Shown here piece by piece: positions 29,110 to 32,880 of a DNA stretch of 64,000 nucleotides; the stretch's first letter is position 1, and each line of letters starts with the position of its first letter. Under the pieces are notes generated by a model. That model saw only the letters and a list, made by a program, of their open reading frames with translations. It was not told where the DNA came from and did no database searches. Both the position numbers and the translations under genes were made by a program. Source of the stretch: an uncultured Bacilli bacterium (GTDB lineage Bacteria; Bacillota_I; Bacilli_A; RF39; UBA660); NCBI GenBank assembly GCA_944351765.1, contig CALVPR010000001.1:1591-65590 (forward strand), read 5' to 3'.

Positions 29110-30069
29110 CTACTTATTCAACATTTTTTTTAATTTAAGAATTTTTTTAGATAAATAACTCATACCATTATAATTTAAAAACGCAATTATTTTTCTATTT
29201 CTAGGAATTTTTTTATAAAAATCTTGTTTTCTATAATCTGAAATATTTTGATGGCAATATTTTATTAATTCCTTTAATACTTTTTTCTTATCTTTATTCT
29301 TTTGTTCAGACACCCTATTAATTGTTGTAATTAATAAATGATGAAATATTATAAATGAAATAATATTTTTATTATAAACATCTTTCTTTTTAGAATATTC
29401 TATTAAGTCATCAATTACAGTTATCATATCTAAATTTTTTAAAGAGTTGTTATTGTTCATAGTAGAAATGTGTCCACAATTACAATGATAAAATCCTTCA
29501 CTAATAATAGAAATTTTAGGATTACTTAATAATATTTTAGTAGTAAAATTTAAGTCTTCATACCATACATTTTTTAAAAATCGTAAATCACCTATAATTT
29601 CTCTTTTAAAAATTTTATTACACGCTGATGGTGTAACACTGTAAATTGAATCATAAACAGTACAATTGTGATATATATTTTTATCAGGATAATGGTCAAC
29701 CATATCACAAATTACTATATCACTCTTTTCTTTTTGTGCTTTATTATACATTTTTTCTAGGGCATCACTATCTAACCAATCATCACTATCCACAAAACAA
29801 ATATACTCCCCTTTTACATGCTTTAATCCAAAATTTCTAGTATCAGATAATCCACCATTTTCTTTTATAAAACTCTTTACTTTATCAGGATATTGTTTTA
29901 CATATTCATCAATTATTTTTTGACTATTATCAGGGCTTCCATCGTTAACCACTATTATTTCGATATCTTCAAGTGTTTGATTTACTAAACTATCTAAACA
30001 TTTATCAATATATTTTTCTACATTGTATACAGGAACTATTACACTAACTTTCATATTAATTTTCTCCAT
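29110..30069 (-). CDS. GT2 family glycosyltransferase (paralog 2)
   Basis: VSVIVPVYNVEKYIDKCLDSLVNQ...IVVNDGSPDNS; DSDD motif; N-terminal ~45 aa nearly identical to paralog 1. Confidence 0.8.
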   Translation of the reverse strand: MEKINMKVSVIVPVYNVEKYIDKCLDSLVNQTLEDIEIIVVNDGSPDNSQKIIDEYVKQYPDKVKSFIKENGGLSDTRNFGLKHVKGEYICFVDSDDWLDSDALEKMYNKAQKEKSDIVICDMVDHYPDKNIYHNCTVYDSIYSVTPSACNKIFKREIIGDLRFLKNVWYEDLNFTTKILLSNPKISIISEGFYHCNCGHISTMNNNNSLKNLDMITVIDDLIEYSKKKDVYNKNIISFIIFHHLLITTINRVSEQKNKDKKKVLKELIKYCHQNISDYRKQDFYKKIPRNRKIIAFLNYNGMSYLSKKILKLKKMLNK

Positions 30070-31816
30070 ATTCTTTTTTCAAATCTAAAAACAAAGTTTT
30101 AATTATATCAATTTCTTTGCAAATTTTATTCATTATATCTTTGCTATCTTTCAAATTATTATTTTCATACGGATCATTTTTCAAATCATAAATTTCAGTG
30201 ATATTATCAAAATTAAAATTTTCACTAATTTTAACTTCTACAAAAACAGAATAATTATCAGTTCTAACTCCCAATTTTACTGGTCTTCTTTTAATATCAG
30301 GACATCCTCCACCCATGTATTCTAATATCGCATGATCATCACCATCATATTTAAGTAAGCTTTTTCCCTTAAAATTACTAGGTATTTTTATTTTAACTAA
30401 GTCTAAAATAGTAGCAGGGATATCTTTATTCATACAATATCCACTTATTTTTTTAGGTTTTACATTTTTTCCATATATCAAAAACGGAACATTATAATTT
30501 TCTTTATAATTGGTTAAAACATATTTTTCTCTAACTGGTGAAAAATAATATGAAAAGCCATGGTCTGCAGTTATTACAACAATAGTATCATCCATTAATT
30601 TTTCTTTTTCTAAAAATTCAAATATACCTTTTATCACATTATCACAATATGATAAAGATAAATCATACGCTATACTTCCTTTATAGTTTTTAGGTAAATT
30701 TTTAACATATTTTTCTGCTCTTTTCATATCTTCATCAATAATTTTTTCATCATTAGTGTCATAAGTAAAAAATATTTCTGGAAAATGTGCATCATCTATA
30801 TGTATATAAGTTAACCAATTATCTTCTTTATTTTTTTCTACCCATTTAAAGAATTCTTGAGAAACCGTATAAAAAGATCTTTGTACTTTAAAGCAATCAT
30901 AATTTTCATCAATTCTACCAAATAAATCTTTATCAAACAAAGAGTTTTTATAACCTGCTAAAAGTCCTTTAACAGTAGTATAATCTCGTTTTTTTAGACT
31001 TTTTATAAATTTTTTATATGGAAATTTATTATTGACCAAGTTTCTTGTAAAGTCTTTTTTCTTGATATCTTTAAATACATATCTATACTTTTTCATTATT
31101 TTTTGCCTAAATTCGTCATCATGTACTTTATCTGTCATTTTATATGTTTTTATTTTAAATAATACATGTTCTCCATTAGATGAAAACAATGACATTAAAT
31201 ATTTACTTTTATTCTTTATAAATTTAGAATATTCATCCTTTAATGTTTCTACATCTTTTTTCATACCTTCTAAATTGACACAATCATTTAACATTACCGT
31301 CTCTTTATCTTTATTTAATAATTTTTCTAAATACAATATCCAATGTTTAAAATTATCTTCCATTAAAAACTCTAGCATTTTATTTTCTTCTTCAGTAGTT
31401 TCTCCATTAATATATAATTTAGAAAAATATTCAAATCTATAATCCCATAGATGCATAAATTGAAATCCCTCTATATATAAGATTTCATCAAAATCTCTAA
31501 CCATATATGAAGGACAAATACTAGGATAATAATTACAATATAATGTTTTATATCCATTTTCTTTGAAATATTTAGAAAAATTATCTATATTTTTAAACTT
31601 CTCCATGTATCCGCCATTATCCATCGTATTAGCAGATGCTAACAAAGACATTAATGCAGCTTCTGTAAACGGAGCCTCTGAATACATTTTATCTCCGGAA
31701 ATACTTTTTTTCCTAAGGTTATTTAAAAAAGGAGCTATATCAGAAGAATTATCTTTATTAAACAAAATATCATTCGTAACAGAATCAATTACAATAAATA
31801 AAACATTTTTTTTCAT
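30056..31816 (-). CDS. Sulfatase-family (alkaline phosphatase superfamily) hydrolase/transferase, no N-terminal TM
   Basis: N-terminal NVLFIVIDSV and C-terminal IVVITADHGFSYY core motifs of sulfatase/LtaS/phosphotransferase family. Confidence 0.65.
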   Translation of the reverse strand: MKKNVLFIVIDSVTNDILFNKDNSSDIAPFLNNLRKKSISGDKMYSEAPFTEAALMSLLASANTMDNGGYMEKFKNIDNFSKYFKENGYKTLYCNYYPSICPSYMVRDFDEILYIEGFQFMHLWDYRFEYFSKLYINGETTEEENKMLEFLMEDNFKHWILYLEKLLNKDKETVMLNDCVNLEGMKKDVETLKDEYSKFIKNKSKYLMSLFSSNGEHVLFKIKTYKMTDKVHDDEFRQKIMKKYRYVFKDIKKKDFTRNLVNNKFPYKKFIKSLKKRDYTTVKGLLAGYKNSLFDKDLFGRIDENYDCFKVQRSFYTVSQEFFKWVEKNKEDNWLTYIHIDDAHFPEIFFTYDTNDEKIIDEDMKRAEKYVKNLPKNYKGSIAYDLSLSYCDNVIKGIFEFLEKEKLMDDTIVVITADHGFSYYFSPVREKYVLTNYKENYNVPFLIYGKNVKPKKISGYCMNKDIPATILDLVKIKIPSNFKGKSLLKYDGDDHAILEYMGGGCPDIKRRPVKLGVRTDNYSVFVEVKISENFNFDNITEIYDLKNDPYENNNLKDSKDIMNKICKEIDIIKTLFLDLKKEYGEN

Positions 31817-31824
31817 ATTATCAC

Positions 31825-32880
31825 CTACTCAAATTCTACAGTTTTCTTAACATCATTATTTATTTCATATGGAAAATCATATAAATATTTTTTTAATTCT
31901 TTTTCTATTATTTTTGTTTCTTCTATATATTCTTCTTTTCTAAATAATTGTGTATTTTTAATAGATATATCAGGATTAAATCTTGTTCTTTTATTGATAT
32001 GATCTTTTTTAGTAAATCCTAAAAATTTAGTTATTTTTTCAATTTCTTCATCATAATTATAAACTAAATCCTCAAATTTAACTCTATACACTTTGTTAGA
32101 ATCCGTTGGGAGTTCGCTTTCTCTCATATTTTTATAAAATTTACAAAACTCATGCACATCAAGTGGAACCGGAACACATATCTGTTTTTCTTGCCAAATA
32201 TATTTATTTATTATAAAAACATCTCTAGGATCTCTTTCTACTGCAATAACCTTTAATTTATCATCAAAATAATTATCAACTCTATGCAAATTAAATGGCA
32301 ATAAAAACTGATCAATTATTACATTATCTTTACCCTTCCCAATTTCTTTTACTACACTATATATATATTCGTGAGAAAATTTATAAAACTCATCAGGTTT
32401 TATAAAAGATATTCTCATACCATCTTTATATTTTAAAATTTTATTAAATTTTACTTTATTAAAAGTTAAAATTTTTAACGGTTTTCTTAATAATAGTTTT
32501 AAAAACATTTTAGTATCTACTTCTTCGTGCATATACCAATACCCATAAAATTTAAACTGCTCTATATTTGAAATAAATTTATCAGTTATATTTTTAAAAT
32601 TTGGTCCTATTATTTTTTCATAGTTTCCTACCCACCAAAATTTTTTATTATATAGTTTATTCATTTGAATCTCAAAACTTCTTATTGCTTCATCACTCCT
32701 AATAGCATTATTACCTATTAATAGTTTATCTTCTAAATCGAAAAGTCCATTTGGGCAATGTAATAAAACATATTCATAACTTTTGTGTTCATTTTGACAG
32801 TCTTTAAATTCTGATATTAAATCAGTCACAGCAGAAGATCCTGAACCCATATAACCAGTTGGTACAATTATTCTTTTCAT
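31825..32880 (-). CDS. Sulfotransferase family protein (P-loop, PAPS-dependent type)
   Basis: N-terminal 5'-PSB-like VPTGYMGSGSSAVTDLI and 3'-PB-like VERDPRDVFI (RDPRD) motifs characteristic of Sulfotransfer_3/Stf0-type enzymes. Confidence 0.55.
   Translation of the reverse strand: MKRIIVPTGYMGSGSSAVTDLISEFKDCQNEHKSYEYVLLHCPNGLFDLEDKLLIGNNAIRSDEAIRSFEIQMNKLYNKKFWWVGNYEKIIGPNFKNITDKFISNIEQFKFYGYWYMHEEVDTKMFLKLLLRKPLKILTFNKVKFNKILKYKDGMRISFIKPDEFYKFSHEYIYSVVKEIGKGKDNVIIDQFLLPFNLHRVDNYFDDKLKVIAVERDPRDVFIINKYIWQEKQICVPVPLDVHEFCKFYKNMRESELPTDSNKVYRVKFEDLVYNYDEEIEKITKFLGFTKKDHINKRTRFNPDISIKNTQLFRKEEYIEETKIIEKELKKYLYDFPYEINNDVKKTVEFE

Follow-up and report, generated by a model that had tools for sequence, protein, structure and literature searches.

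A sulfotransferase-fold protein and an alkaline phosphatase-superfamily protein are probable teichoic acid decoration genes beside a TacF-type flippase

Two adjacent genes in the analysed 64-kb stretch of DNA (the window), which encode a 351 aa protein with a sulfotransferase fold (ST-like) and a 586 aa protein of the alkaline phosphatase (AP) superfamily (AP-like), are probably teichoic acid decoration genes and not sulfation genes. As the sulfatase motif and the catalytic Lys of sulfotransferases are missing, and as the genes lie beside a TacF flippase in a CDP-amino-alcohol locus, it is more likely that phosphocholine/phosphoethanolamine-type groups rather than sulfate are attached by the two proteins. 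With high confidence, the locus itself can be assigned as a TacF-dependent, Wzy-polymerised teichoic acid-like glycopolymer operon of an uncultured gut Bacilli bacterium with a reduced genome (similar to Clostridium sp. CAG:302), and consists of the following genes:

34438..36249, minus strand, NTP_AT fusion protein of 603 aa (Pfam NTP_transferase and Aminotran_1_2)
32877..34340, minus strand, TacF-type teichoic acid repeat-unit flippase (PDB match 9xzn; Pfam Polysacc_synt)
31825..32880, minus strand, ST-like protein of 351 aa, sulfotransferase fold, conserved partner of the TacF-type flippase
30056..31816, minus strand, AP-like protein of 586 aa, AP superfamily, cytoplasmic
29110-30069, minus strand, glycosyltransferase GT2a (Pfam Glycos_transf_2)
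28131-29099, minus strand, glycosyltransferase GT2b (Pfam Glycos_transf_2)
16096..28134, minus strand, remaining glycopolymer operon (Pfam), comprising the genes below
25633-28134, minus strand, Wzy-like/GT4 fusion (Pfam)
24324-25613, minus strand, polysaccharide deacetylase (Pfam)
23539-24261, minus strand, TagA (Pfam)
22211-23542, minus strand, PMT_2 GT-C (Pfam)
21523-22251, minus strand, GT2c (Pfam)
19340-20776, minus strand, 478-aa protein without assigned function
18238-19347, minus strand, MnaA (Pfam)
17227-18237, minus strand, epimerase (Pfam)
16096-17157, minus strand, TagO/WecA-like protein (Pfam)

These genes are tightly spaced, and no minus-strand terminator was found in the scanned 24-41 kb stretch. 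Both open reading frames and their motifs exist as initially annotated, and the proposed polysaccharide-locus setting is supported. The flippase, initially termed Wzx, is a TacF homolog with 9xzn, 'Teichoic acid subunit flippase', as its sole PDB match (E 6.2e-71, 243 bits, residues 17-472). Its stop codon overlaps the start of the ST-like gene by 4 nt, an overlap that recurs at 32% identity, and the flippase gene adjoins the ST-like gene in 48 of 54 well-covered loci, defined as those flanked by 6 kb or more on each side. In pneumococcus, licD1, licD2 and tacF are located in one unit (PMC4364537), and TacF is the gatekeeper for P-Cho (PMC13385700). LicD was not detected in the window by an HMM built from 35 locus LicD sequences, in agreement with Pfam, and the LicD domain (PF04991) was matched by neither the ST-like nor the AP-like protein in Pfam.

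The sulfotransferase alpha/beta fold and the RDPRD sequence of the ST-like protein, now recognized as a 3'-PB-like motif, were confirmed. Its close structural neighbours are without exception PAPS sulfotransferases, and a profile of the family, which comprises 1,434 clusters (about 1,400 at 50% identity), matches essentially sulfotransferases alone in the PDB (E 1e-6). Sulfotransfer_3 is matched by 85 and Sulfotransfer_1 by 74 of 127 members (E<=1e-3), with the scores of the protein itself being marginal and restricted to its C-terminal half (Sulfotransfer_1, 25.9 versus GA 22; Sulfotransfer_3, 26.2 versus GA 27) and no match in NCBIfam. Three sequence features of the protein stand out:

32830..32856, minus strand, P-loop-like segment G9-YMGSGSS-A17, the 5'-PSB loop equivalent without Lys/Arg
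32773..32775, minus strand, E36, an invariant Glu (127/127) and candidate catalytic base
32221..32235, minus strand, RDPRD, 3'-PB-like motif where strand 209-215 ends and helix 218-229 begins

The P-loop-like segment, located between strand 3-9 and helix 15-22 in the model, has the consensus G-[YF]-x-x-[TS]-G-S-S-A among 127 sequences. In contrast to the canonical 5'-PSB loop PKxGTT or PRSGTT with its catalytic Lys/Arg, none of the 127 sequences has K or R two positions upstream of G14, the residues there being G, Y, A, S, N, C or W. Situated 22 residues downstream of G14, E36 is a plausible catalytic base, with a Glu base at similar spacing being known in TPST and heparan sulfate (HS) sulfotransferases. 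The RDPRD motif, 97-99% conserved, aligns with RNPRD of SULT2A1, while the SULT Ser eight residues downstream corresponds to the variable position L/S/I224; Q/H191 comes to lie opposite K158 of TPST2 in a low-probability alignment with the template sequence. Besides lacking the loop Lys/Arg and the conserved 3'-phosphate Ser, the ST-like protein differs from TPST1/2, SULT and HS sulfotransferases by an additional stretch of about 120 residues which separates the loop from the 3'-PB motif. A Ser shared by all known sulfotransferases and a catalytic Lys are described in PMC3733922, and a Lys93Ala substitution is reported to abolish the activity of SOT18 (PMC5482895); in these two papers, both residues are regarded as conserved and essential for catalysis.

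The ST-like protein might nevertheless be a genuine, divergent PAPS O-sulfotransferase which transfers sulfate to the lipid-linked repeat unit immediately ahead of its flipping by TacF, giving a sulfated wall polymer, with the AP-like protein still acting as a phospho-form transferase. The fold, the profile matches, the conserved RDPRD motif and the invariant Glu at a plausible base position are in line with this assumption, and the conserved cationic residues K226, K/R210 and R219 could in principle replace the missing loop Lys. On the other hand, the genes for PAPS supply, sat, cysC and cysD, searched with E. coli sequences as queries, gave no signal, neither in the window nor in the flanks of 113 loci (1.73 Mb). 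In favour of sulfation, genes for PAPS synthesis are often unlinked to sulfotransferase genes; against it, the host genomes are reduced (one chromosome has 1.46 Mb). Neither would PAPS usage explain the tight and deep link with Lic-type modules; the genomic partners of the ST-like gene are, unlike those of PAPS sulfotransferases, CDP-amino-alcohol modules and not PAPS genes. It would also leave 16 of the 48 well-covered loci with a LicC/PntC-type gene, namely those which encode neither LicD nor an AP-like protein, with no enzyme to transfer the activated phospho-alcohol. PAPS-dependent sulfation is considered somewhat unlikely, and the sulfated glycopolymer suggested initially is weakened. If a Lys-less PAPS sulfotransferase did operate here, sulfated teichoic acid-like polymers in Gram-positives and an unusual catalytic solution would be the outcome.

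A different role, that of a nucleotide-binding accessory or checkpoint of the TacF flippase which, for example, senses or passes decorated repeat units without being a transferase, would account for the translational coupling of the two genes, whose overlap recurs at 32% identity, and fits the loss of two cationic catalytic residues and the gatekeeper function of TacF. The invariant Glu36, the near-invariant loop and RDPRD motif and the strong conservation over all clusters are, however, more enzyme-like, and ST-like genes also occur without a neighbouring flippase (L072, L080-84 and L101), rendering a checkpoint role distinctly improbable. Over both of these readings, a role of the ST-like protein as a CDP-X phospho-X transferase is tentatively preferred.

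For the AP-like protein, the annotated sulfatase/AP-superfamily fold without export signal was likewise recovered. The sulfatase catalytic-domain fold, common to LtaS/EptC/PbgA, is interrupted by a helical insertion of about 190 residues (residues ~120-310); no hydrophobic segment was detected in the protein (maximal KD19 0.94), which opens directly with strand beta1. Its predicted active site is composed of:

31781-31786, minus strand, D11-S12, belonging with the metal-ligand motif; D11 invariant
31652..31672, minus strand, P49-F-T51-E-A-A-L55, T51 being the predicted nucleophile in place of the sulfatase C/S-x-P-x-R
30785-30802, minus strand, H339..H344, belonging with the metal-ligand motif; H344 invariant
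30557..30571, minus strand, metal-ligand motif T-A-D418-H419-G; D418 and H419 invariant

Overall sequence and structure similarity, the C-terminal subdomain included, is highest to type I formylglycine sulfatases (SulfAtlas S1). Unlike in these enzymes, Thr occupies the nucleophile position, and the formylglycine motif C/S-x-P/A-x-R is absent from the AP-like family, in which T51, E52 and A53 are invariant among 67 homologs (family motif P-[FY]-T-E-A-A-L). T51, 40 residues after D11 at the N-terminus of helix 51-60, aligns with the Cys within the PICAASR sequence of the sulfatase 6hr5 (weak local score). A Thr combined with Asp/Glu and Asp-His is the arrangement of LtaS/EptA-type sites, and the AP-like protein, with Thr at the helix N-terminus, Asp/Glu and Asp-His ligands, conforms to such an LtaS/EptA/PptA-type site. 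No anSME/FGE-type sulfatase maturase is encoded in the window (no SPASM-type radical-SAM protein, no FGE), the two radical-SAM genes being of the Radical_SAM_C and MiaB types. The AP-like protein is very probably not a sulfatase.

A true sulfatase that adds, removes or remodels sulfate together with a sulfotransferase is accordingly a very remote prospect, largely refuted by the motif test. Furthermore, the AP-like gene accompanies the ST-like gene in just 18 of the 54 well-covered loci, as an accessory partner interchangeable with LicD, and apparent fusions of ST-like and AP-like proteins were rejected as truncation chimeras. The functional sulfotransferase/sulfatase pairing of the initial annotation is therefore not supported, and its fallback, a phospho-alcohol transferase of sulfatase fold, is the better supported of the two. 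In sister loci, the slot of the AP-like gene is taken by LicD or LicD-GT4; a GT2 gene directly follows the AP-like gene in 29 of 30 loci, and GT2a always comes after the AP-like gene or otherwise after LicD. The AP-like gene also co-occurs with an ABC importer and a LicC-like module. These analyses slightly favour a phospho-form transferase acting on a glycan. A rather unlikely alternative is a cytoplasmic hydrolase, a phosphodiesterase/pyrophosphatase with a Thr nucleophile like ENPP6/NPP, that cleaves an imported diester, for instance glycerophosphocholine, to supply the kinase-less LicC module with phosphocholine/phosphoethanolamine, or edits or limits decoration.

A putative phospho-form transferase of this type would be distinct from LtaS/LtaP, EptA/EptC/MCR-1, PptA, GacH, BcsG and PbgA/YejM, which possess N-terminal membrane domains, act extracytoplasmically and use phospholipid donors, whereas the AP-like protein is soluble and cytoplasmic, carries the helical insertion and is encoded beside CDP-X-forming enzymes. 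Coexistence of Lic-1 and PptA-type enzymes is not known (PMC10434233).

The source of CDP-amino-alcohol phosphate is predicted from sequence to be the NTP_AT fusion protein encoded upstream of the flippase, in which a LicC/PntC-like nucleotidyltransferase (matches to the PntC fusion 6pd1, 2e-13, and LicC 1jyk, 8e-11) precedes a CobD/HisC-like PLP domain resembling Ser/Thr-phosphate decarboxylases (6oux, 'threonine phosphate decarboxylase-like', 2e-38; CobD 1lc5, 4e-24; NCBIfam CobD/HisC score of 163 bits, under cutoffs). While both domains thus have known counterparts, the partner domain is of class I/II CobD/HisC type and is neither Ppm nor a class V AEP transaminase. As shown by Rice et al. 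2019 (PMC6697681), nucleotidyltransferases of the PntC/LicC kind supply LicD-like transferases within gene clusters for cell-surface tailoring.

Across lineages and down to about 31% identity, the ST-like family co-occurs with Lic/Pnt-type activation genes, often without LicD. Independent LicD-less lineages (L080-84, L089/97, L102, L104 and L112/113) harbour full choline modules (BCCT or EamA, LicC-LicA, LicC) beside the ST-like gene; in L072, tandem ST-like paralogs directly follow LicC, and in L111 an ST-like gene adjoins LicD at 31% identity.

A possible, still tentative scenario is a TacF-type teichoic acid locus in which decoration relies on ST-fold and AP-fold transferases acting on CDP-activated phospho-amino-alcohols. 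NTP_AT would decarboxylate a phospho-amino acid, such as L-Ser-P to phosphoethanolamine, and subsequently form the CDP-activated product. The Und-PP-linked repeat unit would be assembled by TagO, TagA, GT2b, GT2a and GT4 and receive the phospho-amino-alcohol on the cytoplasmic face before being flipped by TacF. The AP-like protein may transfer the group via a covalent phospho-Thr51 intermediate with release of CMP, the sugar added by GT2a being the putative acceptor. As an analogue of LicD, the ST-like protein would hold CDP-X instead of PAPS in its nucleotide-binding fold, with E36 activating a hydroxyl group of the sugar, so that the in-line attack is directed at the terminal phosphorus and not at sulfur. 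It is conceivable, with somewhat less than even confidence, that the ST-like family switched its donor from PAPS to CDP-phospho-amino-alcohols such as CDP-choline, CDP-ethanolamine and possibly CMP-AEP, and that the AP-like protein is a nucleotide-donor transferase.

Host mimicry, immune recognition by CRP and natural antibodies, and the attachment of choline-binding proteins are driven by phosphocholine/phosphoethanolamine on bacterial surfaces. No bacterial transferase classes for these groups are known apart from LicD and the membrane-bound EptA/PptA type. If the donor switch holds true, the ST-like proteins would constitute a large, uncharacterised family of LicD-independent, TacF-coupled phosphocholine/phosphoethanolamine transferases of gut Firmicutes, an old sulfotransferase fold having gained new enzyme chemistry, and the AP-like protein would be the first soluble phospho-form transferase of the AP superfamily to work in the cytoplasm and from a nucleotide-activated donor. 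Annotations as 'sulfotransferase', 'sulfatase' or 'hypothetical' would then systematically mislead predictions of sulfated glycans, and zwitterionic wall polymers would be much wider distributed in the gut microbiota than LicD surveys imply.

Compared with the lic1/lic2 system of Streptococcus pneumoniae (LicB, LicA, LicC; TacF with LicD1/LicD2), the window lacks LicD and has ST-fold and AP-superfamily proteins beside TacF, activates via a decarboxylase-cytidylyltransferase fusion instead of LicA and LicC, and has its repeat unit on a TagO/TagA linkage with different glycosyltransferases. Shared features are the co-transcription of a TacF homolog with cytoplasmic tailoring enzymes and the adjacent LicC-type activation genes, many sister loci also containing LicD and complete choline modules; one sister locus with a LicD-less choline module, L082, adjoins a choline-binding-repeat hydrolase.

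Both genes of the pair described in the initial annotation are present as claimed, on the minus strand, encoding a sulfotransferase-fold protein (ST-like) with a P-loop-like GSGSS at residues 12-16 and RDPRD at residues 216-220, and a protein of the alkaline-phosphatase superfamily (AP-like). They lie in a tightly packed operon, with spacings of -4 nt between flippase and ST-like, +8 nt between ST-like and AP-like and -14 nt between AP-like and the glycosyltransferase GT2a:

34438-36249, NTP_AT, a 603-aa fusion protein
32877-34340, flippase
31825..32880, minus strand, ST-like, 351 aa
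30056..31816, minus strand, AP-like, 586 aa
29110-30069, glycosyltransferase GT2a

The window has ~23% GC and carries nearly all its genes on the minus strand, on which terminator-like sites are absent from 24 to 41 kb; a promoter scan of DNA of this composition gave fewer matches than in shuffles and was uninformative, and Rfam returned no matches. By genomic similarity, the window comes closest to uncultured gut MAGs, which carry the labels Bacilli, Tenericutes, Erysipelotrichaceae or 'Clostridium sp. CAG:302' and probably belong to the GTDB order RF39; one of them is a complete 1.46-Mb chromosome.

The flippase and glycosyltransferases said to adjoin the pair are indeed there, the supposed Wzx being a TacF homolog by its sole PDB match, the pneumococcal teichoic-acid subunit flippase 9xzn (E 6.2e-71, residues 17-472). 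In the upstream NTP_AT, the best matches of the C-terminal domain are the 'threonine-phosphate decarboxylase-like enzyme' 6oux (2e-38), which we take to be the L-serine-phosphate decarboxylase SMUL_1544, and CobD (4e-24), while the N-terminal domain resembles the PntC fusion 6pd1 (2e-13) and LicC (8e-11); from these matches the predicted product would be a CDP-activated amino-alcohol phosphate, for example CDP-ethanolamine. Downstream of AP-like follow GT2a, GT2b, a Wzy-like/GT4 fusion, a polysaccharide deacetylase, TagA, a GT-C/GT2 pair, MnaA, an epimerase and TagO, and the pathway is of the Wzx/Wzy type, teichoic-acid-like, on a GlcNAc-ManNAc linkage unit.

ST-like is one of a large family of proteins, ~350 aa long and homologous over their full length, which fill 1,434 clusters at 50% identity (E<=1e-3) and are named in NCBI clusters only as 'hypothetical protein'; the window protein has no NCBIfam match, and a tblastn against plasmids gave no match either. 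Pfam matches to the window protein are marginal and confined to residues 203-327 (Sulfotransfer_1, 25.9 bits, gathering 22; Sulfotransfer_3, 26.2 bits, gathering 27), while among 127 aligned members (27-71% identity) 85 match Sulfotransfer_3 and 74 Sulfotransfer_1 at E<=1e-3, the sole other fold family being ATG19, matched marginally by a single member. A PDB search with the family profile returned essentially only PAPS sulfotransferases, with the few other matches at E>1 and SULT2A1 as the best match (E 1e-6) over the RDPRD-to-FEDL..FLG region. Since G14 and E36 are invariant across the 127 members and conservation reaches at least 90% at S15, A17, E24, R216, D217, R219, D220, F269-E270-D271, P303, S306 and N309, the GSGSS and RDPRD motifs of the initial annotation are genuine family signatures.

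Of the features expected of a PAPS sulfotransferase, the fold and the Arg half of the 3'-PB motif, RDPRD, are borne out in ST-like, whereas the Lys of the PSB loop is lacking and the Ser of the 3'-PB is not conserved. PAPS sulfotransferases carry the catalytic Lys/Arg in PKxGTT or PRSGTT loops; the PSB loop of ST-like, between strand 3-9 and helix 15-22, instead reads G-[YF]-x-x-[TS]-G-S-S-A, with a basic residue at the catalytic position in 0/127 members and G, Y, A, S, N, C or W in its place. Likewise, the 3'-phosphate Ser which follows the 3'-PB Arg of SULTs (RNPRDVLVS) aligns to the non-conserved L/S/I224. This Ser-Lys pair has been described as conserved across known sulfotransferases (PMC3733922); in AtSOT18, Lys93Ala abolishes activity (PMC5482895), and Arg177, Ser185 and Arg313 bind the 3'-phosphate, Lys93, Gly95, Thr96 and Thr97 the 5'-phosphate of PAP (PMC3733922, PMC5482895). 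As a lead only, Q/H191 of ST-like stands opposite the transition-state Lys158 of TPST2 (human sequence; hhalign probability 17%).

The main rival interpretation, that ST-like is a genuine PAPS sulfotransferase without the Lys, has precedent and the strictly conserved RDPRD in its favour, but the missing Lys and Ser and the lack of nearby PAPS genes count against it, and it is judged somewhat less likely than the reading of ST-like as a LicD analogue. E. coli CysC and CysD queries and motif scans gave no signal of sat, cysC or cysD in the 1.73 Mb of locus DNA made up by the window and 113 related loci (1.67 Mb), which were collected in part with a 13-sequence subset of the 127-member alignment; PAPS genes, and likewise LicD, may be encoded elsewhere in these genomes. 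Two calcineurin-like phosphoesterases (350 and 351 aa), paralogs in tandem, are encoded at 46976-49128 of the window, followed by an NrnA-like DHH-family protein (49328-50320). NrnA-type enzymes can hydrolyse pAp, a by-product of PAPS use, and are also housekeeping nanoRNases, so that the gene is neutral on the PAPS question.

Among the related loci, 54 are well covered, with at least 6 kb on each side of ST-like. The flippase adjoins ST-like in 48 of these. A function of ST-like as a non-catalytic TacF accessory is judged very unlikely. A LicC/PntC-type gene is likewise present in 48/54; all matches of this type, across 68 loci, have E<=1e-15. The loci are phylogenetically non-independent and fall into ~14 ST-like lineages, 11-12 of them with Lic/Pnt-type genes in view. 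A strict linkage of ST-like with the nucleotidyltransferase was rejected, as six of the 54 loci gave no LicC-type match; the gene is clearly absent from L009, L017 and L106/107 and, outside the well-covered set, from L101. These data establish the locus as a TacF-type, Lic/Pnt-associated glycopolymer locus, and ST-like as a sulfotransferase-fold protein without the canonical catalytic Lys, linked in the genome to the flippase and to the activation of CDP-amino-alcohols.

The means of activation differ between loci. When ORFs of the first 110 loci and the window were clustered together, the commonest neighbour families missing from the window turned out to form one module, an ABC importer with an HTH-LicC homolog (1jyk, E 6.5e-34, full length). 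Examples of this module (L048:4022-8500, L104:8138-12493) comprise a substrate-binding protein (SBP), an ATPase, a fused double permease and HTH_24-LicC, with no kinase. The SBP is similar to proteins that bind phosphorylated ligands, PLP and AEP among them (8x1a, 2e-21; PLP-binding P5PA, 4e-17; 4r72, 1e-15; AEP-binding 4r6y, 6e-5), and the gene content suggests that the module may bring in a precursor phosphorylated beforehand (phosphocholine, AEP or PEtN), which would be cytidylylated directly. Other loci encode a BCCT transporter with a LicC-LicA fusion and LicC, or an AEPT-like aminotransferase with a PntC-like gene. The interval between GpmI and the importer often encodes an FtsK/HerA-like ATPase and a phosphodiester glycosidase with a NAGPA domain ('uncovering enzyme'-like), for example at L046:2877-3917.

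The slot after ST-like is occupied variably by AP-like, LicD, a LicD-GT4 fusion, GT4 plus LicD, GT4 alone or an acyltransferase. GT2 follows AP-like in 29/30 cases, GT2a comes after LicD where it does not follow AP-like, and LicD, AP-like and GT2a are directly adjacent in six loci (L005, L027, L028, L031, L032, L064). AP-like can therefore take the position of LicD or come in addition to it, and is no obligatory partner of ST-like. The 48 loci with a LicC/PntC-type gene divide into 14 with LicD only, nine with AP-like only, nine with both and 16 with neither, the last of which would be left without a cognate transferase if ST-like used PAPS.

Several ST-like lineages that are independent of one another make up the class with neither gene, namely L080-84 (identity to the window protein 60-66%), L089/97 (51%) and L090 (55%), and the same pattern recurs outside the 54-locus count in L102 (44%), L104 (39%) and L112/113 (32%). 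In L112, flippase and ST-like overlap by 4 nt and are followed by LicC-LicA, LicC and BCCT, and no LicD is found in its 21 kb, where every gene is Pfam-labelled or tiny. The 21-kb L082, equally devoid of LicD, encodes one protein with ten Choline_bind_3 repeats, Choline_bind_1 and a CHAP hydrolase domain (L082:1-1386), whose gene adjoins the LicC-LicA/BCCT/LicC module, the TacF-like flippase and ST-like. In L072:3363-5475, two divergent ST-like paralogs in tandem (359 and 343 aa, 42% identity), both with loop and RDPRD, are located directly downstream of the ABC importer and a LicC-like gene with no flippase in between, an arrangement reminiscent of LicD1/LicD2; in pneumococcus, tacF, licD1 and licD2 are one transcription unit (PMC4364537). 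LicD directly follows ST-like (31% identity) in L111.

That ST-like is an analogue of LicD is an interpretation we put forward tentatively. As a leaving-group system, the pyrophosphate in a CDP-activated phospho-amino-alcohol (CDP-X) is chemically analogous to the phosphosulfate anhydride in PAPS, so that the sulfotransferase fold could hold CDP-X, with E36 activating the acceptor hydroxyl. Speculatively, the absence of two cationic residues would be in keeping with transfer of a zwitterionic group, or with a mechanism assisted by Mg2+ via the conserved acidic E24, E36, D48 and D190.

AP-like has neither signal peptide nor TM segment, as the initial annotation stated. Invariant among 67-106 homologs are D11, S12, T51, E52, A53, H344, D418 and H419, and the nucleophile motif reads P-[FY]-T-E-A-A-L. 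T51 opens helix 51-60, 40 residues past D11, and aligns to the Cys of the PICAASR formylglycine motif in 6hr5, in an alignment of weak local score that yet recurs with the single sequence and with the profile. Enzymes in the phosphoryl-transfer branch of the superfamily (LtaS, EptA, NPP) characteristically use a Thr nucleophile. With T51 invariant, no C/S-x-P-x-R motif in the family and no export signal, AP-like is a cytoplasmic Thr-nucleophile enzyme of the alkaline-phosphatase superfamily and not a formylglycine sulfatase. The radical-SAM genes of the 64-kb window are of the Radical_SAM_C and MiaB types, with no sulfatase maturase, and the assignment as a sulfatase had to be withdrawn, a true sulfatase being most improbable. 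We lean towards a transferase which would move the phospho-amino-alcohol from CDP-X onto the sugar added by GT2a via phospho-Thr51; a phosphodiesterase releasing the precursor is an unlikely alternative for the same Thr-nucleophile enzyme.

Five in-frame ST-AP 'fusion' proteins (P0112, P0376, P0325, P0326, P0372) were dismissed as signs of functional coupling: each joins a truncated ST-like N-part to a truncated AP-like C-part at a different breakpoint, so that either deletions have recurred or the assemblies, mostly Logan ones, are at fault. As AP-like occurs as a ~190-aa N-terminal fragment or split in two ORFs (L095) in L042, L057, L095 and L001 (cluster c44), it may be inactivated in some strains. 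An A8 run right behind the ATG of the window gene (31806-31813) could permit slipped-strand on/off switching, or is perhaps meaningless in DNA of 23% GC.

Taken as a system, the locus varies the known Lic/TacF scheme of teichoic-acid decoration; ST-like and AP-like are outside the enzyme classes known for teichoic-acid decoration. The literature searched held no paper tying a sulfotransferase-fold protein to LicD, to phosphocholine-type decoration or to the ST-like family, and Lic-1 and PptA-type transferases of the alkaline-phosphatase superfamily are not known to coexist (PMC10434233).

The iPGM gene (36945-38450), considered as a phosphoglycerate-activation step, was discarded as bona fide housekeeping GpmI (658 bits vs a cutoff of 331), and its linkage to the glycopolymer locus is variable, with a recombination boundary between them in L001. 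Identity of L001 to the window drops from 97-100% over NTP_AT, TacF and ST-like to 53-78% in the genes just upstream (MFS, 165-aa ORF, GpmI, 171-aa ORF), which indicates that the glycopolymer locus ends there at a recombination boundary (~36250-36432, between the 171-aa ORF and NTP_AT), as in capsule-switch-like exchange.

Pfam and NCBIfam gave no match for the ORFs at 19340-20776 (478 aa), 36433-36948 (171 aa) and 38549-39046 (165 aa), the first of which belongs to the glycopolymer operon and is also found in L018 and L021. The stretch 20819-23542 has the look of a three-component module for extracytoplasmic glycosylation that was added to the locus; it encodes a PMT_2 (GT-C) protein, a short 242-aa GT2 and a pair of small ORFs that overlap (124 and ~120 aa, conserved in 14 and 5 loci respectively), and only some sister loci have it. 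An AAA_5 ATPase (587 aa) overlapping a DUF7192 protein (336 aa) at 51325-55762, followed by two ORFs without Pfam match (280 and 287 aa), is a candidate defence cassette, McrB-like or of another kind. The window further encodes a chloramphenicol-acetyltransferase-family protein (3348-4001) and a choloylglycine (bile-salt) hydrolase family protein (1504-2478; CBAH, 329 bits), the latter fitting a gut habitat.
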